NCBI GenBank assembly: GCA_032718475.1
Contig: JAUCBJ010009066.1
Location: 1 to 64,000, forward strand
Direction of reading: 5' to 3'
DNA from: Nemertoderma westbladi
Taxonomy: Eukaryota > Animalia > Xenacoelomorpha
DNA: 64,000 nt
Shown here: in pieces, positions 16,543 to 58,879 of the stretch
Layout of the letters: each line of letters starts with the position of its first letter
Numbering within the stretch: the stretch's first letter is position 1
Position numbers and translations under genes: made by a program
Notes under the pieces: model-generated
The model's input: only the letters and a program-made list of their open reading frames with translations
What the model was told of the DNA's origin: nothing
Databases searched by the model: none

Positions 16543-16695
16543 CTGCAAACTGAAAACTGCAGAAGACAGGCAAATAGGCCCTCACTACCCTACTGTACAT
16601 ATTCAAATGTTGTCCAAGTATTGCCGTGTGTATATAGTTTCTTGAGTTATTTTTATAATATAATATATACATCAAGTTTACTGAAAAAAAAAAAA

Positions 16696-29400: not shown

Positions 29401-30342
29401 GAGCCAAATCTGTACCTAGAGCCAAATCAGTATGTAGAGCCAAATCAGTATGTAGAGCTAAATCAGTAATATAGAGCCAAATCAGTTTGTAGAGCTAAAT
29501 CAGTAATATAGAGCCAAATCAGTTTGTAGAGCCAAATCAGTAAGTAGAGCTAAATCAGTTGTAGAGCCAAATCAGTAAGTAGAGCCAAATCAGTAAGATA
29601 GAGCCAAATCAGTTTGTAGAGCCAAATCAGTAAGTAGAGCCAAATCAGTAACGTAGAGCTAAATCAGTACGTAGAGCCAAATCAGTTTGTAGAGCCAAAT
29701 CAGTGTAGAGCCAAATCAATAGGTAAAGCCAAATCAGTAAGGTAGAGCCAAATCAGTAAGATAGAGCCAAATCTGTACCTATAGCCAAATCAGTATGTAG
29801 AGCCAAATCAGTTTGTAGAGCCAAATCTGTACCTAGAGCCAAATCAGTATGTAGAGCCAAATCAGTATGTAGAGCCAAATCAGTAAGTAGAGCCAAATCA
29901 GTAACGTAGAGCCAAATCAGTATGTAGAGTCAAATCAGTATGTAGAGCCAAATCAGTACGTAGAGCCAAATCAGTTTGTAGAGCCAAATCAATAGGTAAA
30001 GCCAAATCAGTAAGGTAGAGCCAAATCAGTAAGATAGAGCCAAATCAGTAAGATAGAGCCAAATCAGTAAGATAGAGCCAAATCAGTAAGATAGAGCCAA
30101 ATCAGTAAGATAGAGCCAAATCAGTAAGATAGAGCCAAATCAGTAAGATAGAGCCAAATCAGTAAGATAGAGCCAAATCAGTAAGATAGAGCCAAATCAG
30201 TTTGTAGAGCCAAATCAGTAAGATAGAGCCAAATCAGTAACGTAGAGCTAAATCAGTATGTGGAGCCAAATGAGTATGTAGAGCCAAATCAGTACGTAGA
30301 GCCAAATCAGTTTGTAGAGCCAAATCAGTAATGTAGGGCAAA
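20491..30342. repeat. 18-19-bp satellite filling almost an entire intron
   Basis: (agagccaaatcagtaagat / agagccaaatcagtttgt)n, about 9.8 kb. Confidence 0.97.
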
Positions 30343-30358: not shown

Positions 30359-30481
30359 CATGGCGTCGTCATATTTAAACCATTGCCCCTTCCCGTAGAC
30401 CGTTGCTATGCCAACATAGTGCCCGGAATGGGGACTGGATCCGTGATGAAGAATAGCGCCAACTAGCGTATAATTGTGGCG
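30359..30481 (-). CDS. USP36/42-like exon, His box
   Basis: Reads RHNYTLVGAILHHGSSPHSGHYVG...QWFKYDDAM. Acceptor ttgcag|, donor ATG|GTGAGT; phase 0 to 0. Confidence 0.93.
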
Positions 30482-31223: not shown

Positions 31224-31360
31224 TAATGGACATACCTAAAGGAAGGCGGTAAGCAAACAAGGCCTAACAGTTTGTTCTAGAACATATTTTCCAAAAGACT
31301 ATTGAAAAACTTAACAATTTACTCACGTCTTGGTAGTGGGTATTAACTGTTGTAAATGGA

Positions 31361-32067
31361 CCGATGTTCTTAGATACAGATGTTCTTGGATAATATGTTA
31401 TATTCCATTGCCAGAGCTACCACATCACCTTGTTTGCTATGAGCTTAGAGTGTGCGTTTAGTGTCTTTTTACATTTCAACAACTTGGTTCTTCTTTCTTC
31501 TCTGTCTTCTGTTCCAGTAGCCAATTTATCGACCCCAGTCTGGTGAACCACTGGGGGACGCGGTCCTTGTTGACACGGGCGACGACCGAGCCGGTATTTC
31601 TCCAGGAGGGTTCTCATACTCATATCTTTCAGTTGCGGGAGTAAACCGCTTGTGGTCGCAACTCCTACAAGCGTCTTCGCAGTAGGTCGCCGTTGGTTGA
31701 TTACCTTCCGCCGACCTTGTCAGCATGTCTATAGCCATTGGTTGCTTACCTTCCGTCTATCCATGGCCTACAGCCCTGCTGCCGACTGTAGGGGTCCCTT
31801 TGTTACACCCTGAACCAAGTGTGTCTCCTGGGTTAGGTTACCTAACACTAGAGGAAAATTCAGTATAGACAGAGTGGCGTGGGTGCATTTCTATTGCAGA
31901 TTCATTCATGTGACTCAAGCCTTTGCTTTCAATGGTGCCCTAGGCACTGTAGCCCTATCAATGAATTATTTAGTTGACGGGACTTACAAACGCACTCTTG
32001 AATAAGTCTTGATCAACTAAATGATGAATCGGCTATACTGGCGCGGATCGGGGTGCCCTACTGGGCT
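31361..32067 (-). mobile_element. 5' fragment of the same RTE family as 3963-7384
   Basis: Colinear with about 6689-7384. Homology of the two copies ends at tgccctactgggct, which defines the element 5' end. Confidence 0.9.
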
Positions 32068-32244
32068 GACAGCTACTTACAGGTAGTACCACATTACTGC
32101 CATAGTGGGAGCAGAATCTGGGTACTCTGAACTGACTTGTCTCGTTGTCTCCTCTGGTCGTCAACTTGGAATTAACTGTTGTAAATGATAGTAGCAATGT
32201 GTTGGCAAGCTGTGTTTTTCGAGGTGTTTTTGTTTATTATACAT

Positions 32245-32380
32245 TTATTATGGGAACGGCTCTAGGGGTCTCTCGAAAGAAAAATATATTTTACCAATTG
32301 TGAAAATAAAAGATAAGTTATTTAAGGTAAAACAAACTTATCATTCGTGGTTAAGACCCCTCTAACCTTTCCCATAATAA
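32245..32380. mobile_element. Small MITE-like inverted-repeat element at the satellite edge
   Basis: Imperfect TIRs ttattatgggaacggctctaggggtct and agacccctctaacctttcccataataa. Confidence 0.5.
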
Positions 32381-35300
32381 CTGTTGTAAATGGACTGCTT
32401 TACTCACCAGGGTATTAACTGTTGTAAATGGACCGATATCTTTACTCACCTGGGTATTAACTGTTGTAAATGGACCGATATCTTTACTCACCTGGGTATT
32501 ATATAACTGTTGTAAATGGACCGATATCTTTACTCACCCGGGTATTAACTGTTGTAAATGGACCGATATCTTTACTCACCTGGGTATTAACTGTTGTAAA
32601 TGGACCGATATCTTTACTCACCTGGGTATTAACTGTTGTAAATGGACCGATATCTTTACTCACCTGGGTATTATATAACTGTTGTAAATGGACCGATATC
32701 TTTACTCACCCGGGTATTAACTGTTGTAAATGGACCGATATCTTTACTCACCTGGGTATTATATAACTGTTGTAAATGGACCGATATCTTTACTCACCCG
32801 GGTATTAACTGTTGTAAATGGACCGATATCTTTACTCACCCGGGTATTAACTGTTGTAAATGGACCAATATCTTTACTCACCCGGGTATTAACTGTTGTA
32901 AATGGACCGATATCTTTATTCACCTGGGTATTATATAACTGTTGTAAATGGACCGATATCTTTACTCACCCGGGTATTAACTGTTGTAAATGGACCGATA
33001 TCTTTACTCACCCGGGTATTAACTGTTGTAAATGGACCGATATCTTTACTCACCCGGGTATTAACTGTTGTAAATGGACCAATATCTTTACTCACCCGGG
33101 TATTAACTGTTGTAAATGGACCGATATCTTTATTCACCTGGGTATTATATAACTGTTGTAAATGGACCGATATCTTTACTCACCCGGGTATTAACTGTTG
33201 TAAATGGACCGATATCTCTACTCACCTGGGTCTTAACTGTTGTAAATGGACCGATATCTTTACTCACCTGGGTATTAACTGTTGTAAATGGACCGATATC
33301 TTTACTCACCTGGGTATTATATTAACTGTTGTAAATGGACCGATATCTTTATTCACCTGGGTATTATATAACTGTTGTAAATGGACCGATATCTTTACTC
33401 ACCTGGGTATTATATAACTGTTGTAAATGGACCGATATCTTTACTCACCCGGGTATTAACTGTTGTAAATGGACCGATATCTTTACTCACCTGGGTCTTA
33501 ACTGTTGTAAATGGACCGATATCTTTACTCACCTGGGTATTAACTGTTGTAAATGGACTGATATCTTTACTCACCTGGGTATTATATAACTGTTGTAAAT
33601 GGACCGATATCTTTACTCACCCGGGTATTAACTGTTGTAAATGGACCGATATCTTTACTCACCCGGGTATTAACTGTTGTAAATGGACCAATATCTTTAC
33701 TCACCCGGGTATTAACTGTTGTAAATGGACCGATATCTTTATTCACCTGGGTATTATATAACTGTTGTAAATGGACCGATATCTTTACTCACCCGGGTAT
33801 TAACTGTTGTAAATGGACCGATATCTTTACTCACCTGGGTCTTAACTGTTGTAAATGGACCGATATCTTTACTCACCTGGGTATTAACTGTTGTAAATGG
33901 ACCGATATCTTTACTCACCTGGGTATTATATTAACTGTTGTAAATGGACCGATATCTTTACTCACCTGGGTCTTAACTGTTGTAAATGGACCGATATCTT
34001 TACTCACCTGGGTATTAACTGTTGTAAATGGACCGATATCTTTACTCACCTGGGTATTATATTAACTGTTGTAAATGGACCGATATCTTTATTCACCTGG
34101 GTATTATATAACTGTTGTAAATGGACCGATATCTTTACTCACCTGGGTATTATATAACTGTTGTAAATGGACCGATATCTTTACTCACCCGGGTATTAAC
34201 TGTTGTAAATGGACCGATATCTTTACTCACCTGGGTCTTAACTGTTGTAAATGGACCGATATCTTTACTCACCTGGGTATTAACTGTTGTAAATGGACTG
34301 ATATCTTTACTCACCTGGGTATTATATAACTGTTGTAAATGGACCGATATCTTTACTCACCCGGGTATTAACTGTTGTAAATGGACCGATATCTTTACTC
34401 ACCCGGGTATTAACTGTTGTAAATGGACCAATATCTTTACTCACCCGGGTATTAACTGTTGTAAATGGACCGATATCTTTATTCACCTGGGTATTATATA
34501 ACTGTTGTAAATGGACCGATATCTTTACTCACCCGGGTATTAACTGTTGTAAATGGACCGATATCTTTACTCACCTGGGTCTTAACTGTTGTAAATGGAC
34601 CGATATCTTTACTCACCTGGGTATTAACTGTTGTAAATGGACCGATATCTTTACTCACCTGGGTATTATATTAACTGTTGTAAATGGACCGATATCTTTA
34701 TTCACCTGGGTATTATATAACTGTTGTAAATGGACCGATATCTTTACTCACCTGGGTATTATATAACTGTTGTAAATGGACCGATATCTTTACTCACCCG
34801 GGTATTAACTGTTGTAAATGGACCGATATCTTTACTCACCTGGGTCTTAACTGTTGTAAATGGACCGATATCTTTACTCACCTGGGTATTAACTGTTGTA
34901 AATGGACTGATATCTTTACTCACCTGGGTATTATATAACTGTTGTAAATGGACCGATATCTTTACTCACCTGGGTATTAATTGTTGTAAATGGACCGATA
35001 TCTTTACTCACCCGGGTATTAACTGTTGTAAATGGACCGATATCTTTACTCACCCGGGTATTAACTGTTGTAAATGGACCGATATCTTTATTCACCTGGG
35101 TATTATATAACTGTTGTAAATGGACCGATATCTTTACTCACCCGGGTATTAACTGTTGTAAATGGACCGATATCTTTACTCACCTGGGTCTTAACTGTTG
35201 TAAATGGACCGATATCTTTACTCACCTGGGTATTAACTGTTGTAAATGGACCGATATCTTTACTCACCTGGGTATTATATTAACTGTTGTAAATGGACCG

Positions 35301-38300
35301 ATATCTTTATTCACCTGGGTATTATATAACTGTTGTAAATGGACCGATATCTTTACTCACCCGGGTATTAACTGTTGTAAATGGACCGATATCTTTACTC
35401 ACCTGGGTATTAACTGTTGTAAATGGACCGACATCTTTACTCACCTGGGTATTAACTGTTGTAAATGGACCGATATCTTTACTCACCCGGGTATTAACTG
35501 TTGTAAATGGACCGATATCTTTACTCACCTGGGTATTAACTGTTGTAAATGGACCGATATCTTTACTCACCCGGGTATTAACTGTTGTAAATGGACCGAT
35601 ATCTTTACTCACCTGGGTATTAACTGTTGTAAATGGACCGATATCTTTACTCACCTGGGTATTAACTGTTGTAAATGGACCGATATCTTTATTCACCTGG
35701 GTATTATATAACTGTTGTAAATGGACCGATATCTTTACTCACCTGGGTATTAACTGTTGTAAATGGACCGATATCTTTACTCACCTGGGTATTAACTGTT
35801 GTAAATGGACCGATATCTTTACTCACCTGGGTATTAACTGTTGAAATGGACCGATATCTTTATTCGCCTGGGTATTATATAACTGTTGTAAATGGACCGA
35901 TATCTTTACTCACCTGGGTATTAACTGTTGTAAATGGACCGATATCTTTACTCACCTGGGTATTAACTGTTGTAAATGGACCGATATCTTTATTCACCTG
36001 GGTATTATATAACTGTTGTAAATGGACCGATATCTTTACTCACCTGGGTATTAACTGTTGTAAATGGACCGATATCTTTACTCACCTGGGTATTAACTGT
36101 TGTAAATGGACCGATATCTTTACTCACCTGGGTATTAACTGTTGAAATGGACCGATATCTTTATTCACCTGGGTATTATATAACTGTTGTAAATGGACCG
36201 ATATCTTTACTCACCTGGGTATTAACTGTTGTAAATGGACCGATATCTTTACTCACCTGGGTATTAACTGTTGTAAATGGACCGATATCTTTATTCACCT
36301 GGGTATTATATAACTGTTGTAAATGGACCGATATCTTTACTCACCTGGGTATTAACTGTTGTAAATGGACCGATATCTTTACTCACCTGGGTATTAACTG
36401 TTGTAAATGGACCGATATCTTTACTCACCTGGGTATTAACAGTTGTAAATGGACCGATATCTTTACTCACCTGGGTATTAACTGTTGTAAATGGACCGAT
36501 ATCTTTACTCACCTGGGTATTAACAGTTGTAAATGGACCGATATCTTTACTCACCTGGGTATTAACTGTTGTAAATGGACCGATATCTTTACTCACCTGG
36601 GTATTAACTGTTGTAAATGGACCGATATCTTTATTCACCTGGGTATTATATAACTGTTGTAAATGGACCGATATCTTTACTCACCTGGGTATTAACTGTT
36701 GTAAATGGACCGATATCTTTACTCACCTGGGTATTAACTGTTTTAAATGGACCGATATCTTTACTCACCAGGGTATTAACTGTTGTAAATGGACCGATAT
36801 CTTTACTCACCAGGGTATTAACTGTTGTAAATGGACCGATATCTTTACTCACCTGGGTATTAACTGTTGTAAATGGACCGATATATTTACTCACCAGGGT
36901 ATTAACTGTTGTAAATGGACCGATATCTTTATTCACCTGGGTATTATATAACTCTTTAACTGTTGTAAATGGACCGATATCTTTACTCACCTGGGTATTA
37001 ACTGTTGTAAATGGACCGATATCTTTACTCACCTGGGTATTAACTGTTGTAAATGGACCGATATCTTTACTCACCTGGGTATTAACTGTTGTAAATTGAC
37101 CGATATCTTTACTCACCCGGGTATTAACTGTTGTAAATGGACCGATATCTTTACTCACCTGGGTATTAACTGTTGTAAATGGACCGATATCTTTATTCAC
37201 CTGGGTATTATATAACTGTTGTAAATGGACCGATATCTTTACTCACCTGGGTATTAACTGTTGTAAATGGACCGATATCTTTACTCACCTGGGTATTAAC
37301 TGTTGCAAATGGACCGATATCTTTACTCACCTGGGTATAACTGTTGTAAATGGACCGATATCTTTACTCACCTGGGTATTAACTGTTGCAAATGGACCGA
37401 TATATTTACTCACCTGGGTATTAACTGTTGTAAATGGACCGATATCTTTACTCACCCGGGTATTAACTGTTGTAAATGGACCGATATCTTTACTCACCTG
37501 GGTATTAACTGTTGTAAATTGACCGATATCTTTACTCACCCGGGTATTAACTGTTGTAAATGGACCGATATCTTTACTCACCTGGGTATTAACTGTTGTA
37601 AATGGACCGATATCTTTATTCACCTGGGTATTAACTGTTGTAAATGGACCGATATCTTTACTCACCTGGGTATTAACTGTTGTAAATGGACCGATATCTT
37701 TACTCACCCGGGTATTAACTGTTGTAAATGGACCGATATCTTTACTCACCTGGGTATTAACTGTTGTAAATGGACCGATATCTTTATTCACCTGGGTATT
37801 ATATAACTGTTGTAAATGGACCGATATCTTTACTCACCTGGGTATTAACTGTTGTAAATGGACCGATATCTTTACTCACCTGGGTATTAACTGTTGCAAA
37901 TGGACCGATATCTTTACTCACCTGGGTATAACTGTTGTAAATGGACCGATATCTTTACTCACCTGGGTATTAACTGTTGTAAATGGACCGATATATTTAC
38001 TCACCTGGGTATTAACTGTTGTAAATGGACCGATATCTTTACTCACCCGGGTATTAACTGTTGTAAATGGACCGATATCTTTACTCACCTGGGTATTAAC
38101 TGTTGTAAATTGACCGATATCTTTACTCACCCGGGTATTAACTGTTGTAAATGGACCGATATCTTTACTCACCTGGGTATTAACTGTTGTAAATGGACCG
38201 ATATCTTTATTCACCTGGGTATTAACTGTTGTAAATGGACCGATATCTTTACTCACCTGGGTATTAACTGTTGTAAATGGACCGATATCTTTACTCACCC

Positions 38301-41300
38301 GGGTATTAACTGTTGTAAATGGACCGATATCTTTACTCACCAGGGTATTAACTGTTGAAAATGGACCGATATCTTTACTCACCCGGCTATTAACTGTTGT
38401 AAATGGACCGATATCTTTACTCACCTGGGTATTAACTGTTGTAAATGGACCGATATCTTTACTCACCTGGGTATTAACTGTTGTAAATGGACCGATATCT
38501 TTACTCACCTGGGTATTAACTGTTGTAAATGGACCGATATCTTTACTCACCTGGGTATTAACTGTTGTAAATGGACCGATATCTTTATTCACCTGGGTAT
38601 TAACTGTTGTAAATGGACCGATATCTTTACTCACCTGGGTATTAACTGTTGTAAATTGACCGATATCTTTACTCACCCGGGTATTAACTGTTGTAAATGG
38701 ACCGATATCTTTACTCACCTGGGTATTAACTGTTGTAAATGGACCGATATCTTTACTCACCTGGGTATTAACTGTTGTAAATGGACCGATATCTTTACTC
38801 ACCTGGGTATTAACTGTTGAAAATGGACCGATATCTTTATTCACCTGGGTATTAACTGTTGTAAATGGACCGATATATTTACTCACCAGGGTATTAACTG
38901 TTGTAAATGGACCGATATTTTTATTCACCTGGGTATTATATAACTGTTGTAAATGGACCGATATCTTTACTCACCTGGGTATTAACTGTTGTAAATGGAC
39001 CGATATCTTTACTCACCTGGGTATTAACTGTTGTAAATGGACCGATATCTTTATTCACCTGGGTATTATATAACTGTTGTAAATGGACCGATATCTTTAT
39101 TCACCTGGGTATTAACTGTTGTAAATGGACCGATATCTTTACTCACCTGGGTATTAACTGTTGTAAATTGACCGATATCTTTACTCACCCGGGTATTAAC
39201 TGTTGTAAATGGACCGATATATTTACTCACCAGGGTATTAACTGTTGTAAATGGACCGATATCTTTATTCACCTGGGTATTATATAACTGTTGTAAATGG
39301 ACCGATATCTTTACTCACCTGGGTATTAACTGTTGTAAATGGACCGATATATTTACTCACCAGGGTATTAACTGTTGTAAATGGACCGATATCTTTATTC
39401 ACCTGGGTATTATATAACTGTTGTAAATGGACCGATATCTTTACTCACCTGGGTATTAACTGTTGTAAATGGACCGATATCTTTACTCACCTGGGTATTA
39501 ACTGTTGTAAATGGACCGATATCTTTACTCACCTGGGTATTAACTGTTGTAAATTGACCGATATCTTTACTCACCCGGGTATTAACTGTTGTAAATGGAC
39601 CGATATCTTTACTCACCTGGGTATTAACTGTTGTAAATGGACCGATATCTTTATTCACCTGGGTATTATATAACTGTTGTAAATGGACCGATATCTTTAC
39701 TCACCTGGGTATTAACTGTTGTAAATGGACCGATATCTTTACTCACCTGGGTATTAACTGTTGTAAATGGACCGATATCTTTACTCACCTGGGTATTAAC
39801 TGTTGTAAATGGACCGATATCTTTACTCACCTTGGTATTAACTGTTGTAAATGGACTGCTTTACTCACCTGGGTATTAACTGTTGTAAATGGACCGATAT
39901 CTTTACTCACCTGGGTCTTAACTGTTGTAAATGGACCGATATCTTTACTCACCTGGGTATTAACTGTTGTAAATGGACTGATATCTTTACTCACCTGGGT
40001 ATTATATAACTGTTGTAAATGGACCGATATCTTTACTCACCCGGGTATTAACTGTTGTAAATGGACCGATATCTTTACTCACCCGGGTATTAACTGTTGT
40101 AAATGGACCAATATCTTTACTCACCCGGGTATTAACTGTTGTAAATGGACCGATATCTTTATTCACCTGGGTATTATATAACTGTTGTAAATGGACCGAT
40201 ATCTTTACTCACCCGGGTATTAACTGTTGTAAATGGACCGATATCTTTACTCACCTGGGTCTTAACTGTTGTAAATGGACCGATATCTTTACTCACCTGG
40301 GTATTAACTGTTGTAAATGGACCGATATCTTTACTCACCTGGGTATTATATTAACTGTTGTAAATGGACCGATATCTTTACTCACCTGGGTCTTAACTGT
40401 TGTAAATGGACCGATATCTTTACTCACCTGGGTATTAACTGTTGTAAATGGACCGATATCTTTACTCACCTGGGTATTATATTAACTGTTGTAAATGGAC
40501 CGATATCTTTATTCACCTGGGTATTATATAACTGTTGTAAATGGACCGATATCTTTACTCACCTGGGTATTATATAACTGTTGTAAATGGACCGATATCT
40601 TTACTCACCCGGGTATTAACTGTTGTAAATGGACCGATATCTTTACTCACCTGGGTCTTAACTGTTGTAAATGGACCGATATCTTTACTCACCTGGGTAT
40701 TAACTGTTGTAAATGGACTGATATCTTTACTCACCTGGGTATTATATAACTGTTGTAAATGGACCGATATCTTTACTCACCCGGGTATTAACTGTTGTAA
40801 ATGGACCGATATCTTTACTCACCCGGGTATTAACTGTTGTAAATGGACCAATATCTTTACTCACCCGGGTATTAACTGTTGTAAATGGACCGATATCTTT
40901 ATTCACCTGGGTATTATATAACTGTTGTAAATGGACCGATATCTTTACTCACCCGGGTATTAACTGTTGTAAATGGACCGATATCTTTACTCACCTGGGT
41001 CTTAACTGTTGTAAATGGACCGATATCTTTACTCACCTGGGTATTAACTGTTGTAAATGGACCGATATCTTTACTCACCTGGGTATTATATTAACTGTTG
41101 TAAATGGACCGATATCTTTATTCACCTGGGTATTATATAACTGTTGTAAATGGACCGATATCTTTACTCACCTGGGTATTATATAACTGTTGTAAATGGA
41201 CCGATATCTTTACTCACCCGGGTATTAACTGTTGTAAATGGACCGATATCTTTACTCACCTGGGTCTTAACTGTTGTAAATGGACCGATATCTTTACTCA

Positions 41301-44300
41301 CCTGGGTATTAACTGTTGTAAATGGACTGATATCTTTACTCACCTGGGTATTATATAACTGTTGTAAATGGACCGATATCTTTACTCACCTGGGTATTAA
41401 TTGTTGTAAATGGACCGATATCTTTACTCACCCGGGTATTAACTGTTGTAAATGGACCGATATCTTTACTCACCCGGGTATTAACTGTTGTAAATGGACC
41501 GATATCTTTATTCACCTGGGTATTATATAACTGTTGTAAATGGACCGATATCTTTACTCACCCGGGTATTAACTGTTGTAAATGGACCGATATCTTTACT
41601 CAACTGGGTCTTAACTGTTGTAAATGGACCGATATCTTTACTCACCTGGGTATTAACTGTTGTAAATGGACCGATATCTTTACTCACCTGGGTATTATAT
41701 TAACTGTTGTAAATGGACCGATATCTTTATTCACCTGGGTATTATATAACTGTTGTAAATGGACCGATATCTTTACTCACCCGGGTATTAACTGTTGTAA
41801 ATGGACCGATATCTTTACTCACCTGGGTATTAACTGTTGTAAATGGACCGACATCTTTACTCACCTGGGTATTAACTGTTGTAAATGGACCGATATCTTT
41901 ACTCACCCGGGTATTAACTGTTGTAAATGGACCGATATCTTTACTCACCTGGGTATTAACTGTTGTAAATGGACCGATATCTTTACTCACCCGGGTATTA
42001 ACTGTTGTAAATGGACCGATATCTTTACTCACCTGGGTATTAACTGTTGTAAATGGACCGATATCTTTACTCACCTGGGTATTAACTGTTGTAAATGGAC
42101 CGATATCTTTATTCACCTGGGTATTATATAACTGTTGTAAATGGACCGATATCTTTACTCACCTGGGTATTAACTGTTGTAAATGGACCGATATCTTTAC
42201 TCACCTGGGTATTAACTGTTGTAAATGGACCGATATCTTTACTCACCTGGGTATTAACTGTTGAAATGGACCGATATCTTTATTCGCCTGGGTATTATAT
42301 AACTGTTGTAAATGGACCGATATCTTTACTCACCTGGGTATTAACTGTTGTAAATGGACAGATATCTTTACTCACCTGGGTATTAACTGTTGTAAATGGA
42401 CCGATATCTTTATTCACCTGGGTATTATATAACTGTTGTAAATGGACCGATATCTTTACTCACCTGGGTATTAACTGTTGTAAATGGACCGATATCTTTA
42501 CTCACCTGGGTATTAACTGTTGTAAATGGACCGATATCTTTACTCACCTGGGTATTAACTGTTGAAATGGACCGATATCTTTATTCACCTGGGTATTATA
42601 TAACTGTTGTAAATGGACCGATATCTTTACTCACCTGGGTATTAACTGTTGTAAATGGACCGATATCTTTACTCACCTGGGTATTAACTGTTGTAAATGG
42701 ACCGATATCTTTATTCACCTGGGTATTATATAACTGTTGTAAATGGACCGATATCTTTACTCACCTGGGTATTAACTGTTGTAAATTGACCGATATCTTT
42801 ACTCACCTGGGTATTAACTGTTGTAAATGGACCGATATCTTTACTCACCTGGGTATTAACAGTTGTAAATGGACCGATATCTTTACTCACCTGGGTATTA
42901 ACTGTTGTAAATGGACCGATATCTTTACTCACCTGGGTATTAACAGTTGTAAATGGACCGATATCTTTACTCACCTGGGTATTAACTGTTGTAAATGGAC
43001 CGATATCTTTACTCACCTGGGTATTAACTGTTGTAAATGGACCGATATCTTTATTCACCTGGGTATTATATAACTGTTGTAAATGGACCGATATCTTTAC
43101 TCACCTGGGTATTAACTGTTGTAAATGGACCGATATCTTTACTCACCTGGGTATTAACTGTTTTAAATGGACCGATATCTTTACTCACCAGGGTATTAAC
43201 TGTTGTAAATGGACCGATATCTTTACTCACCAGGGTATTAACTGTTGTAAATGGACCGATATCTTTACTCACCTGGGTATTAACTGTTGTAAATGGACCG
43301 ATATATTTACTCACCAGGGTATTAACTGTTGTAAATGGACCGATATCTTTATTCACCTGGGTATTATATAACTCTTTAACTGTTGTAAATGGACCGATAT
43401 CTTTACTCACCTGGGTATTAACTGTTGTAAATGGACCGATATCTTTACTCACCTGGGTATTAACTGTTGTAAATGGACCGATATCTTTACTCACCTGGGT
43501 ATTAACTGTTGTAAATTGACCGATATCTTTACTCACCCGGGTATTAACTGTTGTAAATGGACCGATATCTTTACTCACCTGGGTATTAACTGTTGTAAAT
43601 GGACCGATATCTTTATTCACCTGGGTATTATATAACTGTTGTAAATGGACCGATATCTTTACTCACCTGGGTATTAACTGTTGTAAATGGACCGATATCT
43701 TTACTCACCTGGGTATTAACTGTTGCAAATGGACCGATATCTTTACTCACCTGGGTATAACTGTTGTAAATGGACCGATATCTTTACTCACCTGGGTATT
43801 AACTGTTGCAAATGGACCGATATATTTACTCACCTGGGTATTAACTGTTGTAAATGGACCGATATCTTTACTCACCCGGGTATTAACTGTTGTAAATGGA
43901 CCGATATCTTTACTCACCTGGGTATTAACTGTTGTAAATTGACCGATATCTTTACTCACCCGGGTATTAACTGTTGTAAATGGACCGATATCTTTACTCA
44001 CCTGGGTATTAACTGTTGTAAATGGACCGATATCTTTATTCACCTGGGTATTAACTGTTGTAAATGGACCGATATCTTTACTCACCTGGGTATTAACTGT
44101 TGTAAATGGACCGATATCTTTACTCACCCGGGTATTAACTGTTGTAAATGGACCGATATCTTTACTCACCTGGGTATTAACTGTTGTAAATGGACCGATA
44201 TCTTTATTCACCTGGGTATTATATAACTGTTGTAAATGGACCGATATCTTTACTCACCTGGGTATTAACTGTTGTAAATGGACCGATATCTTTACTCACC

Positions 44301-47300
44301 TGGGTATTAACTGTTGCAAATGGACCGATATCTTTACTCACCTGGGTATAACTGTTGTAAATGGACCGATATCTTTACTCACCTGGGTATTAACTGTTGT
44401 AAATGGACCGATATATTTACTCACCTGGGTATTAACTGTTGTAAATGGACCGATATCTTTACTCACCCGGGTATTAACTGTTGTAAATGGACCGATATCT
44501 TTACTCACCTGGGTATTAACTGTTGTAAATTGACCGATATCTTTACTCACCCGGGTATTAACTGTTGTAAATGGACCGATATCTTTACTCACCTGGGTAT
44601 TAACTGTTGTAAATGGACCGATATCTTTATTCACCTGGGTATTAACTGTTGTAAATGGACCGATATCTTTACTCACCTGGGTATTAACTGTTGTAAATGG
44701 ACCGATATCTTTACTCACCCGGGTATTAACTGTTGTAAATGGACCGATATCTTTACTCACCAGGGTATTAACTGTTGAAAATGGACCGATATCTTTACTC
44801 ACCCGGGTATTAACTGTTGTAAATGGACCGATATCTTTACTCACCTGGGTATTAACTGTTGTAAATGGACCGATATCTTTACTCACCTGGGTATTAACTG
44901 TTGTAAATGGACCGATATCTTTACTCACCTGGGTATTAACTGTTGTAAATGGACCGATATCTTTACTCACCTGGGTATTAACTGTTGTAAATGGACCGAT
45001 ATCTTTATTCACCTGGGTATTAACTGTTGTAAATGGACCGATATCTTTACTCACCTGGGTATTAACTGTTGTAAATTGACCGATATCTTTACTCACCCGG
45101 GTATTAACTGTTGTAAATGGACCGATATATTTACTCACCAGGGTATTAACTGTTGTAAATGGACTGATATCTTTATTCACCTGGGTATTATATAACTGTT
45201 GTAAATGGACCGATATCTTTACTCACCTGGGTATTAACTGTTGTAAATGGACCGATATCTTTACTCACCTGGGTATTAACTGTTGTAAATGGACCGATAT
45301 CTTTACTCACCTGGGTATTAACTGTTGTAAATTGACCGATATCTTTACTCACCCGGGTATTAACTGTTGTAAATGGACCGGTATCTTTACTCACCTGGGT
45401 ATTAACTGTTGTAAATGGACCGATATCTTTATTCACCTGGGTATTATATAACTGTTGTAAATGGACCGATATCTTTACTCACCTGGGTATTAACTGTTGT
45501 AAATGGACCGATATCTTTACTCACCTGGGTATTAACTGTTGTAAATGGACCGATATCTTTACTCACCTGGGTATTAACTGTTGTAAATGGACCGATATCT
45601 TTACTCACCTGGGTATTAACTGTTGTAAATGGACCGATATATTTACTCACCTGGGTATTAACTGTTGTAAATGGACCGATATCTTTATTCACCTGGGTAT
45701 TATATAACTGTTGTAAATGGACCGATATCTTTACTCACCTGGGTGTTAACTGTTGTAAATGGACCGATATCTTTACTCACCTGGGTATTAACTGTTGTAA
45801 ATGGACCGATATCTTTACTCACCTGGGTATTAACTGTTGTAAATGGACCGATATCTTTACTCACCTGGGTATTAACTGTTGTAAATGGACCGATATCTTT
45901 ACTCACCTGGGTATTAACTGTTGTAAATGGATCGATATCTTTACTCACCTGGGTATTAACTGTTGTAAATGGACCGATATCTTTACTCACCTGGGTATTA
46001 CCCCTATTAACTGTTGTAAATGGACCGATATCTTTACTCACCTGGGTATTAACTGTTGTAAATGGACCGATATCTTTACTCACCTGGGTATTAACTGTTG
46101 TAAATGGACCGATATCTTTACTCACCTGGGTATTAACTGTTGTAAATGGACCGATATCTTTACTCACCTGGGTATTAACTGTTGTAAATGGACCGATATC
46201 TTTACTCACCTGGGTATTAACTGTTGTAAATGGACCGATATCTTTACTCACCTGGGTATTAACTGTTGTAAATGGACCGATATCTTTACTCACCTGGGTA
46301 TTAACTGTTGAAAATGGACCGATATCTTTATTCACCTGGGTATTANNNNNNNNNNNNNNNNNNNNNNNNNNNNNNNNNNNNNNNNNNNNNNNNNNNNNNN
46401 NNNNNNNNNNNNNNNNNNNNNNNNNNNNNNNNNNNNNNNNNNNNNTGCTTTACTCACCTGGGTATTAACTGTTGTAAATGGACCGATATCTTTACTCACC
46501 TGGGTATTAACTGTTGTAAATGGACCGATATCTTTACTCACCTGGGTATTAACTGTTGTAAATGGACCGATATCTTTACTCACCTGGGTATTAACTGTTG
46601 TAAATGGACCGATATCTTTACTCACCTGGGTATTAACTGTTGTAAATGGACCTGCTTTACTCACCTGGGTATTAACTGTTGTAAATGGACCGATATCTTT
46701 ACTCACCTGGGTATTAACTGTTGTAAATGGACTAGCTTTACTCACCTGGGTATTAACTGTTGTAAATGGACCAATATCTTTACTCACCTGGGTATTAACT
46801 GTTGTAAATGGACCGATATCTTTACTCACCTGGGTATTAACTGTTGTAAATGGACGTATCTTTACTCACCTGGGTATTAACTGTTGTAAATGGACCGATA
46901 TCTTTACTCACCTGGGTATTAACTGTTGTAAATGGACCGATATCTTTACTCACCTGGGTATTAACTGTTGTAAATGGACCGATATCTTTACTCACCTGGG
47001 TATTAACTGTTGTAAATGGACCGATATCTTTACTCACCTGGGTATTAACTGTTGTAAATGGACTGCTTTACTCACCTGGGTATTAACTGTTGTAAATGGA
47101 CCGATATCTTTACTCACCTGGGTATTAACTGTTGTAAATGGACCGATATCTTTACTCACCTGGGTATTAACTGTTGTAAATGGACCGATATCTTTACTCA
47201 CCTGGGTATTAACTGTTGTAAATGGACCGATATCTTTACTCACCTGGGTATTAACTGTTGTAAATGGACCGATATCTTTACTCACCTGGGTATTAACTGT

Positions 47301-50300
47301 TGTAAATGGACTGCTTTACTCACCTGGGTATTAACTGTTGTAAATGGACCGATATCTTTACTCACCTGGGTATTAACTGTTGTAAATGGACCGATATCTT
47401 TACTCACCTGGGTATTAACTGTTGTAAATGGACCGATATCTTTACTCACCTGGGTATTAACTGTTGTAAATGGACCGATATCTTTACTCACCAGGGTATT
47501 AACTGTTGTAAATGGACCGATATCTTTACTCACCTGGGTATTAACTGTTGTAAATGGACCGATATCTTTACTCACCTGGGTATTAACTGTTGTAAATGGA
47601 CCGATATCTTTACTCACCTGGGTATTAACTGTTGTAAATGGACCGATATCTTTACTCACCTGGGTATTAACTGTTGTAAATGGACCGATATCTTTACTCA
47701 CCTGGGTATTAACTGTTGTAAATGGACCGATATCTTTACTCACCTGGGTATTAACTGTTGTAAATGGACCGATATCTTTACTCACCTGGGTATTAACTGT
47801 TGTAAATGGACCGATATCTTTACTCACCTGGGTATTAACTGTTGTAAATGGACCGATATCTTTACTCACCTGGGTATTAACTGTTGTAAATGGACGTGCT
47901 TTACTCACCTGGGTATTAACTGTTGTAAATGGACCGTATCTTTACTCACCTGGGTATTAACTGTTGTAAATGGACTGCTTTACTCACCTGGGTATTAACT
48001 GTTGTAAATGGACCGATATCTTTACTCACCTGGGTATTAACTGTTGTAAATGGACCGATATCTTTACTCACCTGGGTATTAACTGTTGTAAATGGACCGA
48101 TATCTTTACTCACCTGGGTATTAACTGTTGTAAATGGACCGATATCTTTACTCACCTGGGTATTAACTGTTGTAAATGGACTGCTTTACTCACCTGGGTA
48201 TTAACTGTTGTAAATGGACCGATATCTTTACTCACCTGGGTATTAACTGTTGTAAATGGACGTAGCTTTACTCACCTGGGTATTAACTGTTGTAAATGGA
48301 CCAATATCTTTACTCACCTGGGTATTAACTGTTGTAAATGGACCGATATCTTTACTCACCTGGGTATTAACTGTTGTAAATGGACGATGCTTTACTCACC
48401 TGGGTATTAACTGTTGTAAATGGACTGCTTTACTCACCTGGGTATTAACTGTTGTAAATGGACCGATATCTTTACTCACCTGGGTATTAACTGTTGTAAA
48501 TGGACTGCTTTACTCACCTGGGTATTAACTGTTGTAAATGGACCGATATCTTTACTCACCTGGGTATTAACTGTTGTAAATGGACCGATATCTTTACTCA
48601 CCTGGGTATTAACTGTTGTAAATGGACTGCTTTACTCACCTGGGTATTAACTGTTGTAAATGGACCGATATCTTTACTCACCTGGGTATTAACTGTTGTA
48701 AATGGACTGCTTTACTCACCTGGGTATTAACTGTTGTAAATGGACCAATATCTTTACTCACCTGGGTATTAACTGTTGTAAATGGACCGATATCTTTACT
48801 CACCTGGGTATTAACTGTTGTAAATGGACTACTTTACTCACCTGGGTATTAACTGTTGTAAATGGACCGATATCTTTACTCACCTGGGTATTAACTGTTG
48901 TAAATGGACCGATATCTTTACTCACCTGGGTATTAACTGTTGAAAATGGACCGATATCTTTACTCACCTGGGTATTAACTGTTGTAAATGGACCGATATC
49001 TTTACTCACCTGGGTATTAACTGTTGTAAATGGACTGCTTTACTCACCTGGGTATTAACTGTTGTAAATGGACCGATATCTTTACTCACCTGGGTATTAA
49101 CTGTTGTAAATGGACCGATATCTTTACTCACCTGGGTATTAACTGTTGTAAATGGACCGATATCTTTACTCACCTGGGTATTAACTGTTGTAAATGGACC
49201 GATATCTTTACTCACCTGGGTATTAACTGTTGTAAATGGACCGATATCTTTACTCACCTTGGTATTAACTGTTGTAAATGGACGTGCTTTACTCACCTGG
49301 GTATTAACTGTTGTAAATGGACCGATATCTTTACTCACCTGGGTATTAACTGTTGTAAATGGACCGATATCTTTACTCACCTGGGTATTAACTGTTGAAA
49401 ATGGACCGATATCTTTACTCACCTGGGTATTAACTGTTGTAAATGGACCGATATCTTTACTCACCTGGGTATTAACTGTTGTAAATGGACCGATATCTTT
49501 ACTCACCTGGGTATTAACTGTTGAAAATGGACCGATATCTTTACTCACCTGGGTATTAACTGTTGTAAATGGACCGATATCTTTACTCACCTGGGTATTA
49601 ACTGTTGTAAATGGACCGATATCTTTACTCACCTGGGTATTAACTGTTGTAAATGGACCGATATCTTTACTCACCTGGGTATTAACTGTTGAAAATGGAC
49701 CGATATCTTTACTCACCTGGGTATTAACTGTTGTAAATGGACCGATATCTTTACTCACCTGGGTATTAACTGTTGTAAATGGACCGATATCTTTACTCAC
49801 CTGGGTATTAACTGTTGTAAATGGACCGATATCTTTACTCACCTGGGTATTAACTGTTGTAAATGGACCGATATCTTTACTCACCTGGGTATTAACTGTT
49901 GTAAATGGACCGATATCTTTACTCACCTGGGTATTAACTGTTGTAAATGGACCGATATCTTTACTCACCTGGGTATTAACTGTTGAAAATGGACCGATAT
50001 CTTTACTCACCTGGGTATTAACTGTTGTAAATGGACCGATATCTTTACTCACCTTGGTATTAACTGTTGTAAATGGACTGCTTTACTCACCTGGGTATTA
50101 ACTGTTGTAAATGGACCGATATCTTTACTCACCCGGGTATTAACTGTTGTAAATGGACCGATATCTTTACTCACCTGGGTATTAACTGTTGTAAATGGAC
50201 CGATATCTTTACTCACCTGGGTATTAACTGTTGTAAATGGACCGATATCTTTACTCACCTGGGTATTAACTGTTGTAAATGGACTGCTTTACTCACCTGG

Positions 50301-53300
50301 GTATTAACTGTTGTAAATGGACCGATATCTTTACTCACCCGGGTATTAACTGTTGTAAATGGACCGATATCTTTACTCACCTGGGTATTAACTGTTGTAA
50401 ATGGACCGATATCTTTACTCACCTGGGTATTAACTGTTGTAAATGGACCGATATCTTTACTCACCTGGGTATTAACTGTTGTAAATGGACCGATATCTTT
50501 ACTCACCTGGGTATTAACTGTTGTAAATGGACCGATATCTTTACTCACCTGGGTATTAACTGTTGTAAATGGACCGATAGCTTTACTCACCTCCACCTGG
50601 TATTAACTGTTGTAAATGGACCGATATCTTTACTCACCTGGGTATTAACTGTTGTAAATGGACCGATATCTTTACTCACCTGGGTATTAACTGTTGTAAA
50701 TGGACCGATATCTTTACTCACCTGGGTATTAACTGTTGTAAATGGACCGATATCTTTACTGCTCACCTGGGTATTAACTGTTGTAAATGGACCGATATCT
50801 TTACTCACCTGGGTATTAACTGTTGTAAATGGACCGATATCTTTATTCACCTGGGTATTATATAACTGTTGTAAATGGACCGATATCTTTACTCACCTGG
50901 GTATTAACTGTTGTAAATGGACCGATATCTTTACTCACCCGGGTATTAACTGTTGTAAATGGACCGATATCTTTACTCACCTGGGTATTAACTGTTGTAA
51001 ATGGACTACTTTACTCACCTGGGTATTAACTGTTGTAAATGGACCGATATCTTTACTCACCTGGGTATTAACTGTTGTAAATGGACCGATATCTTTACTC
51101 ACCTGGGTATTAACTGTTGTAAATGGACCGATATCTTTACTCACCTGGGTATTAACTGTTGTAAATGGACCGATATCTTTACTCACCTGGGTATTAACTG
51201 TTGTAAATGGACCGTGCTTTACTCACCTGGGTATTAACTGTTGTAAATGGACCGATATCTTTACTCACCTGGGTATTAACTGTTGTAAATGGACCGATAT
51301 CTTTACTCACCTGGGTATTAACTGTTGTAAATGGACCGATATCTTTACTCACCTGGGTATTAACTGTTGTAAATGGACCGATATCTTTACTCACCTGGGT
51401 ATTAACTGTTGTAAATGGACCGATATCTTTACTCACCTGGGTATTAACTGTTGTAAATGGACGTGCTTTACTCACCTGGGTATTAACTGTTGTAAATGGA
51501 CCGATATCTTTACTCACCTGGGTATTAACTGTTGTAAATGGACCGATATCTTTACTCACCTGGGTATTAACTGTTGAAAATGGACCGATATCTTTACTCA
51601 CCTGGGTATTAACTGTTGTAAATGGACCGATATCTTTACTCACCTGGGTATTAACTGTTGTAAATGGACCGATATCTTTACTCACCTGGGTATTAACTGT
51701 TGAAAATGGACCGATATCTTTACTCACCTGGGTATTAACTGTTGTAAATGGACCGATATCTTTACTCACCTGGGTATTAACTGTTGTAAATGGACCGATA
51801 TCTTTACTCACCTGGGTATTAACTGTTGTAAATGGACCGATATCTTTACTCACCTGGGTATTAACTGTTGTAAATGGACCGATATCTTTACTCACCTGGG
51901 TATTAACTGTTGTAAATGGACCGATATCTTTACTCACCTGGGTATTAACTGTTGTAAATGGACCGATATCTTTACTCACCTGGGTATTAACTGTTGTAAA
52001 TGGACCGATATCTTTACTCACCTGGGTATTAACTGTTGTAAATGGACCGATATCTTTACTCACCTGGGTATTAACTGTTGAAAATGGACCGATATCTTTA
52101 CTCACCTGGGTATTAACTGTTGTAAATGGACCGATATCTTTACTCACCTGGGTATTAACTGTTGAAAATGGACCGATATCTTTACTCACCTGGGTATTAA
52201 CTGTTGTAAATGGACCGATATCTTTACTCACCTTGGTATTAACTGTTGTAAATGGACTGCTTTACTCACCTGGGTATTAACTGTTGTAAATGGACCGATA
52301 TCTTTACTCACCCGGGTATTAACTGTTGTAAATGGACCGATATCTTTACTCACCTGGGTATTAACTGTTGTAAATGGACCGATATCTTTACTCACCTGGG
52401 TATTAACTGTTGTAAATGGACCGATATCTTTACTCACCTGGGTATTAACTGTTGTAAATGGACGTAGCTTTACTCACCTGGGTATTAACTGTTGTAAATG
52501 GACCGATATCTTTACTCACCCGGGTATTAACTGTTGTAAATGGACCGATATCTTTACTCACCTGGGTATTAACTGTTGTAAATGGACCGATATCTTTACT
52601 CACCTGGGTATTAACTGTTGTAAATGGACCGATAGCTTTACTCACCTGGGTATTAACTGTTGTAAATAGACCGATATCTTTACTCACCTGGGTTTAACTG
52701 TTGTAAATGGACCGATATCTTTACTCACCTGGGTATTAACTGTTGTAAATGGACCGATAGCTTTACTCACCTCCACCTGGTATTAACTGTTGTAAATGGA
52801 CCGATATCTTTACTCACCTGGGTATTAACTGTTGTAAATGGACCGATATCTTTACTCACCTGGGTATTAACTGTTGTAAATGGACCGATATCTTTACTCA
52901 CCTGGGTATTAACTGTTGTAAATGGACCGATATATTTACTGACTCACCTGGGTATTAACTGTTGTAAATGGACCGATATCTTTACTCACCTGGGTATTAA
53001 CTGTAGTAAATGGACCGATATCTTTATTCACCCGGGTATTATATAACTGTTGTAAATGGACCGATATCTTTACTCACCTGGGTATTAACTGTTGTAAATG
53101 GACCGATATCTTTATTCACCCGGGTATTATATAACTGTTGTAAATGTACCGATATCTTTACTCACCCGGGTATTATATACTGTTGTAAATGGACCGATAT
53201 CTTTACTCACCCGGGTATTATATAACTGTTGTAAATGGACCGATATCTTTACTCACCCGGGTATTAACTGTTGTAAATGGACCGATATCTTTACTCACCT

Positions 53301-54600
53301 GGGTATTAACTGTTGTAAATGGACCGATATCTTTACTCACCTGGGTATTAACTGTTGTAAATGGACCGATATCTTTACTCACCCGGGTATTAACTGTTGT
53401 AAATGGACCGATATCTTTACTCACCTGGGTATTAACTGTTGTAAATGGACCGATATCTTTACTCACCCGGGTATTAACTGTTGTAAATGGACCGATATCT
53501 TTACTCACCTGGGTATTAACTGTTGTAAATGGACCGATATCTTTACTCACCCGGGTATTAACTGTTGTAAATGGACCGATATCTTTACTCACCTGGGTAT
53601 TAACTGTTGTAAATGGACCGATATCTTTACTCACCCGGGTATTAACTGTTGTAAATGGACCGATATCTTTACTCACCTGGGTATTAACTGTTGTAAATGG
53701 ACCGATATCTTTACTCACCCGGGTATTAACTGTTGTAAATGGACCGATATCTTTACTCACCTGGGTATTAACTGTTGTAAATGGACCGATATCTTTACTC
53801 ACCTGGGTATTAACTGTTGTAAATGGACCGATATCTTTACTCACCCGGGTATTAACTGTTGTAAATGGACCGATATCTTTACTCACCTGGGTATTAACTG
53901 TTGTAAATGGACCGATATCTTTACTCACCTGGGTATTAACTGTTGTAAATGGACCGATATCTTTACTCACCTGGGTATTAACTGTTGTAAATGGACCGAT
54001 ATCTTTACTCACCTGGGTATTAACTGTTGTAAATGGACCGATATCTTTACTCACCCGGGTATTAACTGTTGTAAATGGACCGATATCTTTACTCACCTGG
54101 GTATTAACTGTTGAAAATGGACCGATATCTTTACTCACCTGGGTATTAACTGTTGTAAATGGACCGATATCTTTACTCACCCGGGTATTAACTGTTGTAA
54201 ATGGACCGATATCTTTACTCACCTGGGTATTAACTGTTGTAAATGGACCGATATCTTTACTCACCTGGGTATTAACTGTTGTAAATGGACCGATATCTTT
54301 ACTCACCTGGGTATTAACTGTTGTAAATGGACCGATATCTTTATTCACCTGGGTATTATATAACTGTTGTAAATGGACCGATATCTTTACTCACCCGGGT
54401 ATTAACTGTTGTAAATGGACCGATATCTTTACTCACCTGGGTATTAACTGTTGTAAATGGACCGATATCTTTACTCACCTGGGTATTAACTGTTGTAAAT
54501 GGACCGATATCTTTACTCACCTGGGTATTAACTGTTGTAAATGGACCGATAGGCCTATATTTACTCACCAGGGTATTAACTGTTGAAAATGGACCGATAT
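32378..54600 (-). repeat. 42-bp satellite made of the USP exon end plus its 5' splice site (about 500+ copies)
   Basis: Sense unit ATATCGGTCCATTTACAACAGTTAATACCCAG|GTGAGTAAAG matches the exon end ATATCGGTCCATTTTCAACAGTTAATACCCTG|GTGAGTAAA at 54600-54560. Confidence 0.97.
46346..46445. other. Assembly gap (100 N)
   Basis: Run of N. The true array length is therefore unknown. Confidence 1.
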
Positions 54601-54746
54601 TGATATTTTCCAAATATTTAACTCTCCTGGTGTCTTTCCTAACGATTCCAGGGAAATTTGATTTAAACCTTTTTAAATGAAGGATTAACACATTGGGCGG
54701 CTGGTGGATGAGCACTCGCTTAGTTGCGTTCACTTTATGGCGACAT
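54569..54746 (-). CDS. USP36/42-like exon (catalytic domain)
   Basis: Acceptor acgcag|A. Reads CRHKVNATKRVLIHQPPNVLILHLKRF...VKYLENINIGPF. Donor CTG|GTGAGT; phase 2 to 0. Confidence 0.93.
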
Positions 54747-54895
54747 CTGCGTATAGATTAATAGCGAATAATTAATAATTATTCAAATGATAAATTAAAT
54801 TTAAAAAATTAAATAATACAATGATAGCGTATTGATAAAAACGAATAACTATATGTTAGTCTCGCACTTGTACAATTCAATAATTCATTAGGGAT

Positions 54896-57800
54896 GTTAC
54901 CCCGAGGTATGTTTGTCACGCACCTGTACACTCGAGGTATGTTTGTCACGCACCTGTAACCCCGAGGTATGTTTGTCACGCACCTGTACACTCGAGGTAT
55001 GTTTGTCACGCACCTGTAACCCCGAGGTATGTTTGTCACGCACCTGTAACCCCGAGGTATGTTTGTCACGCACCTGTACATTAGAGGTATGTTTGTCACG
55101 CACCTGTAACCCCGAGGTATGTTTGTCACGCACCTGTAAACTCGAGGTATGTTTATCACGCACCTGTACATTAGAGGTATGTTTATCACGCACCAGTAAC
55201 CCCCAGGTATGTTTGTCACGCACCTGTAACCCCGAGGTATGTTTGTCACGCACCTGTACATTAGAGGTATGTTTGTCACGCACCTGTACATTAGAGGTAT
55301 GTTTGTCACGCACCTGTAAACTCGAGGTATGTTTGTCACGCACATGTAACCCCGAGGTATGTTTGTCACGCACCTGTAACCCCGAGGTATGTTTGTCACG
55401 CACCTGTAACCCCGAGGTATGTTTGTCACGCACCTGTACATTAGAGGTATGTTTGTCACGCACCTGTAAACTCGAGGTATGTTTGTCACGCACATGTAAC
55501 CCCGAGGTATGTTTGTCACACACCTGTAACCCCGAGGTATGTTTGTCACGCACCTGTACATTAGAGGTATGTTTGTCACGCACCTGTACATTAGAGGTAT
55601 GTTTGTCACGCACCTGTAACCCCGAGGTATGTTTGTCACGCACATGTAACCCCGAGGTATGTTTGTCACGCACCTGTAACCCCGAGGTATGTTTGTCACG
55701 CACCTGTACATTAGATGTATGTTTGTCACGCACCTGTACATTAGAGGTATGTTTGTCACGCACCTGTAAACTCGAGGTATGTTTGTCACGCACATGTAAC
55801 CCCGAGGTATGTTTGTCACGCACCTGTAACCCCGAGGTATGTTTGTCACGCACCTGTAACCCCGAGGTATGTTTGTCACGCACCTGTACATTAGAGGTAT
55901 GTTTGTCACGCACCTGTAAACTCGAGGTATGTTTGTCACGCACATGTAACCCCGAGGTATGTTTGTCACGCACCTGTACATTAGAGGTATGTTTGTCACG
56001 CACCTGTAACCCCGAGGTATGTTTGTCACGCACATGTAACCCCGAGGTATGTTTGTCACGCACCTGTAACCCCGAGGTATGTTTGTCACGCACCTGTACA
56101 TTAGAGGTATGTTTGTCACGCACCTGTACATTAGAGGTATGTTTGTCACGCACCTGTAAACTCGAGGTATGTTTGTCACGCACATGTAACCCCGAGGTAT
56201 GTTTGTCACGCACCTGTAACCCCGAGGTATGTTTGTCACGCACCTGTAACCCCGAGGTATGTTTGTCACGCACCTGTACATTAGAGGTATGTTTGTCACG
56301 CACCTGTAAACTCGAGGTATGTTTGTCACGCACATGTAACCCCGAGGTATGTTTGTCACGCACCTGTAACCCCGAGGTATGTTTGTCACGCACCTGTACA
56401 TTAGAGGTATGTTTGTCACGCACCTGTACATTAGAGGTATGTTTGTCACGCACCTGTAACCCCGAGGTATGTTTGTCACGCACATGTAACCCCGAGGTAT
56501 GTTTGTCACGCACCTGTAACCCCGAGGTATGTTTGTCACGCACCTGTACATTAGATGTATGTTTGTCACGCACCTGTACACTCGAGGTATGTTTGTCACG
56601 CACCTGTAACCCCGAGGTATGTTTGTCACGCACCTGTAACCCCGAGGTATGTTTGTCACGCACCTGTACATTAGAGGTATGTTTGTCACGCACCTGTACA
56701 CTCGCGGTATGTTTGTCACGCACCTGTAAACTCGAGGTATGTTTATCACGCACCTGTACATTAGAGGTATGTTTATCACGCACCAGTAACCCCCAGGTAT
56801 GTTTGTCACGCACCTGTAACCCCGAGGTATGTTTGTCACGCACCTGTACATTAGAGGTATGTTTGTCACGCACCTGTACATTAGAGGTATGTTTGTCACG
56901 CACCTGTAAACTCGAGGTATGTTTATCACGCACCTGTACATTAGAGGTATGTTTATCACGCACCAGTAACCCCCAGGTATGTTTGTCACGCACATGTAAC
57001 CCCGAGGTATGTTTGTCACGCACCTGTACACTCGAGGTATGTTTGTCACGCACCTGTACACTCGAGGTATGTTTGTCATGCACCAGTAACCCCAGGTATG
57101 TTTGTCACGCACCAGTAACCCCCAGGTATGTTTGCCACGCACATGTCACACTGAGGTATGTTTGTCACGCACCAGTAACCCCCAGGTATGTTTGTCACGC
57201 ACCAGTTACCCCCAGGTATGTTTGTCACGCACCAGTAACCCCCAGGTATGTTTGCCACGCACATGTCACACTGAGGTATGTTTGTCACGCACCTGTTACC
57301 CCCAGGTATGTTTGTCACGCACCTGTTACCCCCAGGTATGTTTGTCACGCACCAGTAACCCCCAGGTATGTTTGTCACGCACCTGTTACCCCCAGGTATG
57401 TTTGTCACGCACCAGTAACCCCCAGGTATGTTTGTCACGCACCTGTTACCCCCAGGTATGTTTGTCACGCACCAGTAACCCCCAGGTATGTTTGTCACGC
57501 ACCAGTTACCCCCAGGTATGTTTGTCACGCACCAGTAACCCCCAGGTATGTTTGCCACGCACATGTCACACTGAGGTATGTTTGTCACGCACCTGTTACC
57601 CCCAGGTATGTTTGTCACGCACCTGTTACCCCCAGGTATGTTTGTCACGCACCAGTAACCCCCAGGTATGTTTGTCACGCCCCTGTTACCCCCAGGTATG
57701 TTTGTCACGTACCAGTAACCCCCAGGTATGTTTGTCACGCACCTGTTACCCCCAGGTATGTTTGTCACGCACCAGTAACCCCCAGGTATGTTTGTCACGC

Positions 57801-58682: not shown

Positions 58683-58879
58683 GATACTGGTTGTTCCCAT
58701 AGAGTCGCGTAGATATAGCGAACATCCTCAGCAGTTCGATTATATTTACCGGATGGTCCGACTTGGGTAAATCCAAACTGAGTTGGGTGAACACTTCGTA
58801 AGTGTTCGACTTATAATGGCACTCACCACAGACAACCTGGGAGCGCATAGTACCCGCAAATATATCCCGCAAAGCTGAT
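58673..58879 (-). CDS. USP36/42-like exon (zinc-binding fingers subdomain)
   Basis: Acceptor ttttag|A. Reads SALRDIFAGTMRSQVVCGECHYKSNTYEVFTQLSLDL...NQYQCDR. Donor AG|GTGCGT; phase 2 to 2. Confidence 0.92.

Follow-up and report, generated by a model that had tools for sequence, protein, structure and literature searches.

The window analyzed here, the first 64,000 nucleotides of contig JAUCBJ010009066.1 from Nemertoderma westbladi, carries on its minus strand a predicted gene that, judged by its sequence, is a USP (peptidase C19) deubiquitinase with a UCH domain and a His box. Three of the five exons tested passed the Pfam cut-off for UCH. The most upstream exon found in the window lies at 59416..59649 (Pfam UCH, E 2e-05; boundaries from splice-site analysis). 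It is followed by an exon at 58673..58879 with a weak UCH_1 match (E 0.11), a 178-nt exon at 54569..54746 (UCH, E 9.3e-06), and the His-box exon at 30359..30481 (UCH, E 2.1e-08). The top PDB match of the 178-nt exon was human USP36 (E 2.2e-06). The His-box exon matched other USPs best, with USP36 at E 0.06, and “USP36-like” therefore denotes likeness rather than an orthology call. We found no convincing motif for the Cys-box exon with its catalytic cysteine within 59600-64000, and this exon may sit outside the window; a homologue search with the 178-nt exon, limited to longer proteins, returned no matches.

Three consecutive introns of this gene hold tandem arrays, which occupy 88% of a 40.6-kb span. 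The array-free lengths of the introns with the 30-bp, 42-bp, and 19-bp repeats are 148, 1,896, and 148 nt, the first and the last being equal.

The 42-bp array fills the intron between the 178-nt exon and the His-box exon (32378..54600, minus strand). TRF reported a period of 42, 523.6 copies, and 93% matches, and we counted 518 GTGA donor cores with the authentic donor among them, in agreement with a preliminary description of a 22-kb array with about 500 U1 sites. Read on the minus strand, the unit is identical at 39 of 42 positions to the last 32 bases of the 178-nt exon joined to the first 10 bases of the intron, and its likeness to the exon ends 32 nt into it, just as had been described (an exon end of about 32 nt plus a donor). 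This anatomy supports the earlier proposal of a satellite seeded by a splice junction, and we refer to the exon whose 3' end seeded the array as the seeding exon. The array comprises 64 distinct unit types, and its donor cores are spaced 42 nt apart in 406 of 517 intervals.

The authentic donor of the seeding exon, at 54568, reads CTG/GTGAGT. Most of the 518 cores differ from it: 363 read CAG/GTGAGT, 81 CGG/GTGAGT, 50 CAG/GTGAAT, and 15 CTG/GTGAGT, with 9 others. The motif MAG/GTRAGT occurs 0 times in the 7,253 non-repeat bases of the host gene. We scored U1 pairing as the duplex energy with the 5' end of U1, using an 11-nt motif taken from general knowledge; 451 of the 518 cores paired better than the first donor, 15 equally well, and 52 worse. 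The earlier statement that most units read CAG/GTGAGT and surpass the first donor thus holds. A second one, that the unit forms 14 codons without a stop, is accurate for the commonest unit (211 of 517) and fails for the 99 of 517 units that shift the frame or carry a stop. Downstream of the first donor lie four phase-0 donors (54520, 54478, 54436, and 54394; 54394..54520, minus strand) which, as previously noted, are in frame and stop-free. Their use, not seen here, would lengthen the exon to 226-352 nt. The first in-frame stop past the seeding exon falls in the fifth unit (54358-54356), matching the frame reported as open to 54356.

A second donor-repeating array, absent from the preliminary description, lies in the preceding intron (54895..58676, minus strand; TRF, 30 bp x 126), where it starts at the donor of the preceding exon; contigs of it were present in sequencing runs X1, X2, and X4. 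Among its 124 sites, GTGCGT is preceded by CAG in 80, CTG in 29, and CAT in 13. Read in the exon frame, none of the 19 distinct 30-nt variants contains a stop. Coding selection was considered as a reading of this open frame and rejected, since chance alone would give stop-free variants in about one case of two (P ~0.51). The third array (20512..30336, minus strand; 19 bp x 533) starts 22 nt after the next donor and contains 0 GTRAG motifs.

Evidence on which donor is used came from run X3, which is listed as “DNA?” and whose RNA nature we infer from a spliced contig. This contig (contig 17; 1,129 nt, depth 1038.5) covers exactly 54569-54749, and its loose ends correspond letter for letter to 30452-30481 of the His-box exon and 58676-58696 of the preceding exon. 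It contains two junctions, one between the first donor of the seeding exon and the His-box exon and one between the first donor of the 30-bp array (CAG/GTGCGT at 58672) and the seeding exon. The first donors are thus used in both donor-array introns, and the acceptor position of 30481 given previously is correct. Splicing at the authentic site persists, as viewed from the donor side in one library through assembled contigs, which drop rare forms. The preliminary description had held that a junction from 54569 to 30481 alone would speak against its functional proposals, and this is the junction present in the sole spliced contig. No X3 sequence covered the part of 54490-54950 that belongs to the array, an absence that we did not count as evidence by itself; the X3 individual may carry another allele of the array. 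Splicing through the first donor gives a linker to the His-box exon that equals the USP36 length to within one residue (6 steps, compared with 280 to 287).

Within the 42-bp array, an internal block is present in two copies 6,420 bp apart (33490..45600), which are identical at 5,662 of 5,683 aligned bases (21 mismatches, 99.6%). A 100-N assembly gap, which the preliminary description did not mention, also lies inside the array (46346..46445), and 22 kb is therefore its assembled length only, the true length being uncertain. The continuous array ends at an insertion with 31-nt inverted arms of 84% identity (32241..32384), which suggest a MITE-like element. Past this insertion, repeat-family comparison identified a stub of the 42-bp unit (32168..32187, minus strand). 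Farther along lie a 5' fragment of a LINE-like element (31395..32036, minus strand; ~90% identical to 6717-7359 by blastn) and a detached degenerate unit followed by GTGAGT (31321..31370, minus strand), an old distal remnant of the array. The block duplication and the remnants split by MITE-like and LINE-like insertions are ordinary tandem-repeat turnover. Nested inverted repeats mark a second MITE-like element in the tail of this intron (30846-31222).

Contigs of array units were recovered from DNA runs X1 and X2, which belong to two studies (X1 may be the source sample), and a contig of run X4 crosses from the seeding exon 46 nt into the first unit. Relative to a unique contig, contig depth in X1 was ~70 for 46-nt units (57 in the assembly) and ~23 for CTG units (15 in the assembly), depth not being equal to copy number. 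With the same reservation, the array-to-unique depth was far lower in X2 than in X1, and X2 and X4, which represent one sample, disagreed. In both X3 and X4, the exon base at 54586 differs from that in the window and equals the repeat-unit base, and the first unit in X4 lacks a 6-nt insert that is present in the window. The exon end of these alleles is even nearer to the unit, which fits an origin of the unit from the exon or an exchange with it; from these bases, an exchange between exon and array at 54586 is possible.

Several other elements were observed in the window. A LINE-like element with split frames at 3983-7380 (minus strand), including an ORF at 4016-5596 that matches RVT_1 (E 4.4e-33), is the element that the fragment at 31395-32036 resembles (90%). 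A second element, at 11581-17714, contains a 1,266-codon open frame (12742-16542, plus strand) whose similarity to RVT_1 is weak (E 8.7e-05, below the cut-off) and which has an internal 30-36-bp coding repeat; the frame sits between two 1-kb blocks of one 30-bp satellite and ends in an A-run. These features suggest a non-LTR retrotransposon that is intact and possibly targets repeats. Two open frames of 175 and 271 codons at 372-2480 (plus strand) appeared sulfotransferase-type by eye and gave no hit in Pfam at E 0.001. Ahead of the most upstream exon found in the window, inverted copies of ~430 bp recognized by eye (60130-60560 and 63390-63830) flank a degenerate 10-bp repeat (61498-62973), and 60130-63830 is possibly a large non-autonomous DNA transposon.

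We next consider signs of function in the sequence of the 42-bp array. The donor is unprotected from change, with 4 of 25 distinct substitutions located in its 9 nt (p 0.63), and counting changes by copy among the 407 42-mers placed 136 in the donor compared with 96 in the other 33 bases. The count is biased because units were defined on the donor core, and the bias favors conservation. The commonest unit variants alter the donor itself and weaken the U1 site, and one of them creates AATAAA. A single G-to-A change, found in 52 units, produces both a weaker donor and a new AATAAA. This hexamer is not enriched, with 54 occurrences in the 22,191 array bases and 6 in the remaining 1,896 bases of the intron.

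A piece comprising an exon end and its donor is thus repeated more than 500 times while the first donor is used, and the array is probably a junction-spanning minisatellite (a “mirage”) that has likely been expanding neutrally. Such an array would have begun with a tandem duplication across the junction in which the authentic donor remained in the most upstream position, and unequal crossing-over or slippage would then have amplified and homogenized the copies. The spliceosome likely commits to the first donor, through exon definition or 5'-to-3' choice, as in human F7. The copies would cost little because of this likely commitment to the most upstream donor. Leakage to donors 2-5 would add 16-58 residues, and leakage past donor 5 would bring a stop and likely degradation.

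Among the alternatives, a ladder of alternative donors survives best, and we still regard it as unlikely. In such a ladder, donors 2-5 would be used to a meaningful extent and would lengthen the loop that precedes the His box, a known insertion point in USPs, by 16, 30, 44, or 58 residues. All four downstream donors are reached in frame before any stop, and they pair with U1 at -13.8 or -13.1 kcal/mol, compared with -10.8 kcal/mol for the first donor. The 30-bp array likewise has 52 in-frame donors, the first included, before its first stop, an openness that, as noted above, is compatible with chance. Nor is selection needed to keep the 42-bp unit open, because 10 of its 14 codons are copied exon, and the frame is stopped by the fifth unit already. 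Moreover, the single X3 contig is continuous over the first-donor junction. Precedents do exist (PMC1557585): two pseudo-sites are used in human 6-16 and in CBS, and perfect pseudo-sites compete in F7 minigenes. Competition by the repeat donors is mechanistically possible, because pseudo-sites reading CAG/gtgagt took ~70-90% in these minigenes (PMC1557585). We consider similarly improbable an arrangement in which a highly expressed gene is spliced correctly past ~450 stronger donors while its array is put to use, either through a regulated ladder of loop insertions in the USP domain from the first few in-frame copies or through stepwise removal of the array, the output depending on array length.

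Stepwise (recursive) splicing, in which the CAG/GT of each unit would serve first as acceptor and then as donor and the intron would be removed piecewise, is very unlikely, although 363 units carry CAG/GTGAGT and the final mRNA would match the contig seen. We compared the sequence before the repeat CAG with the four correctly placed true acceptors of the host gene, leaving out the acceptor of the last exon and the donor of the first. The pyrimidine fraction was 0.55 before the repeat CAG and 0.60-0.75 in the true acceptors, two of which were near it at 0.60. The earlier argument that a weak polypyrimidine tract speaks against acceptor use is therefore right in direction, but it rests on a slight difference and is a modest one. 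The T fraction was 0.30 compared with 0.40-0.65, and the AG upstream of the repeat CAG lies 11 nt away, compared with 22 or >28 nt in 4 of 4 true acceptors. Because of this AG, the repeat CAG is an unlikely acceptor, and in this comparison it does not form the functional acceptor abutting a donor that characterizes a recursive splice site. Furthermore, CAG is replaced by CGG in 81+2 units and by CTG in 15, and the neighboring 10-kb intron has no such sites.

U1 telescripting is established, and 54 AATAAA hexamers are scattered among the 451 strong U1 sites. That the array is retained to serve as a U1 platform or sink and to guard a long intron from premature polyadenylation is nonetheless a shade more doubtful still. 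The intron is long through the array itself and would measure 1,896 nt without it, the density of AATAAA is no higher in the array than in the rest of the intron, and the commonest variants weaken the U1 site, one of them making AATAAA. The 19-bp array, in turn, does without U1 sites.

We give even less credence to an origin of the intron through the Rogers route, in which an AGGT segment within an exon is tandemly duplicated. The units do contain AG/GT along with 32 exon bases, and mirage-based intron gain is a published hypothesis (PMC3087553). However, the Rogers model, as given in a review (PMC3443670), needs the last copy as the source of the acceptor, and here a T-rich acceptor unrelated to the unit, at 30481, lies 1,896 nt (1.9 kb) beyond the array. 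The start of the His-box exon also differs from the unit sequence, and 10 unit bases are absent from both exons. As the real acceptor is no part of the repeat, this is not the Rogers configuration that the preliminary description had invoked. An assembly artefact, finally, can practically be dismissed: the 100-N gap and the 99.6% identical 6.4-kb block make the exact length uncertain, but the 64 distinct unit types, the unit contigs in X1 and X2, and the X4 contig that enters the first unit from the exon all speak for a real array.

The functional proposals made previously are thus not supported, as the first donor is the one in the sole spliced contig, the donor is unprotected, only four downstream donors are in frame, and an AG sits 11 nt upstream of the repeat CAG. 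No function of the 42-bp array is supported, and nothing here points to one; a function, if true, would be new. The array nevertheless offers a natural test of 5' splice-site choice, setting commitment to the first donor against hundreds of stronger decoys. Its copies carry the sequence that wins in F7 minigenes, whereas splicing in the assembled transcript goes through the weaker first site, and the decoys are apparently passed over. It also serves as a warning for gene predictors and read mappers.

Giant introns filled with satellites are known from Drosophila Y genes. There, as here, an expressed gene has a span that consists mostly of tandem repeat (88% here). The Drosophila Y introns reach megabases, whereas those described here measure tens of kilobases, and the unit here derives from the gene's own splice junction. 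A narrow search of the literature, in sources available in part, found no larger donor-repeating array, and the available part of PMC10078293 held nothing on junction-spanning arrays. The Rogers model shares with this locus a tandem duplication containing AG/GT; it differs in that the duplicated piece here holds bases of an existing intron and the acceptor used is no repeat copy (PMC3443670).

Intron 7 of human F7 contains a VNTR of 5-9 units of 37 bp, and splicing there relies solely on the most upstream donor (Borensztajn et al. 2006, PMC1557585). The same source describes further human arrays in 6-16 (25 pseudo-sites, two used), CBS IVS13 (15-20 units, two used), LMNB2 (10-15 units), and PDGF intron 4 (16-18 units), the last two using the authentic site only. 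When pseudo-sites in F7 minigenes were converted to CAG/gtgagt, their usage reached ~70% and ~90% (PMC1557585), a finding that runs counter to the reading preferred here. F7 and its kin resemble this locus in having a first unit that straddles the exon-intron boundary, repeated donors within the intron, and splicing from the most upstream donor. Those arrays have 4-25 copies, while this one has at least 517 downstream copies, and its length exceeds that of the five human cases (F7, 6-16, CBS, LMNB2, and PDGF) by a factor of 20 to 100. The unit here is mostly exon (32 of 42 nt, compared with 4 of 37 in F7), and two consecutive introns are affected. In addition, most copies here beat the authentic site in their match to U1, which is the condition that gave competition in the F7 minigenes.

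Similarly, the amphioxus “mirage” minisatellites of Adh3 and the globins BflGb6 and BflGb9 are tandem duplications of a boundary, with units of 10-160 bp (PMC3087553). They occur at either boundary, reportedly leave regular splicing undisturbed, and turn over by unequal crossing-over (PMC3087553). The idea that only donor-side duplications are tolerated was dropped, as both boundaries are duplicated in amphioxus (PMC3087553). What these mirages have in common with our locus is a tandemly duplicated exon-intron boundary in an animal gene. BflGb6 has 3-6 units, whereas the array described here is far longer and shows higher-order block duplication and remnants split by transposons. The arrangement is thus already in the literature (PMC1557585, PMC3087553), and the array in this USP gene is likely a further, very large and drifting example of it.
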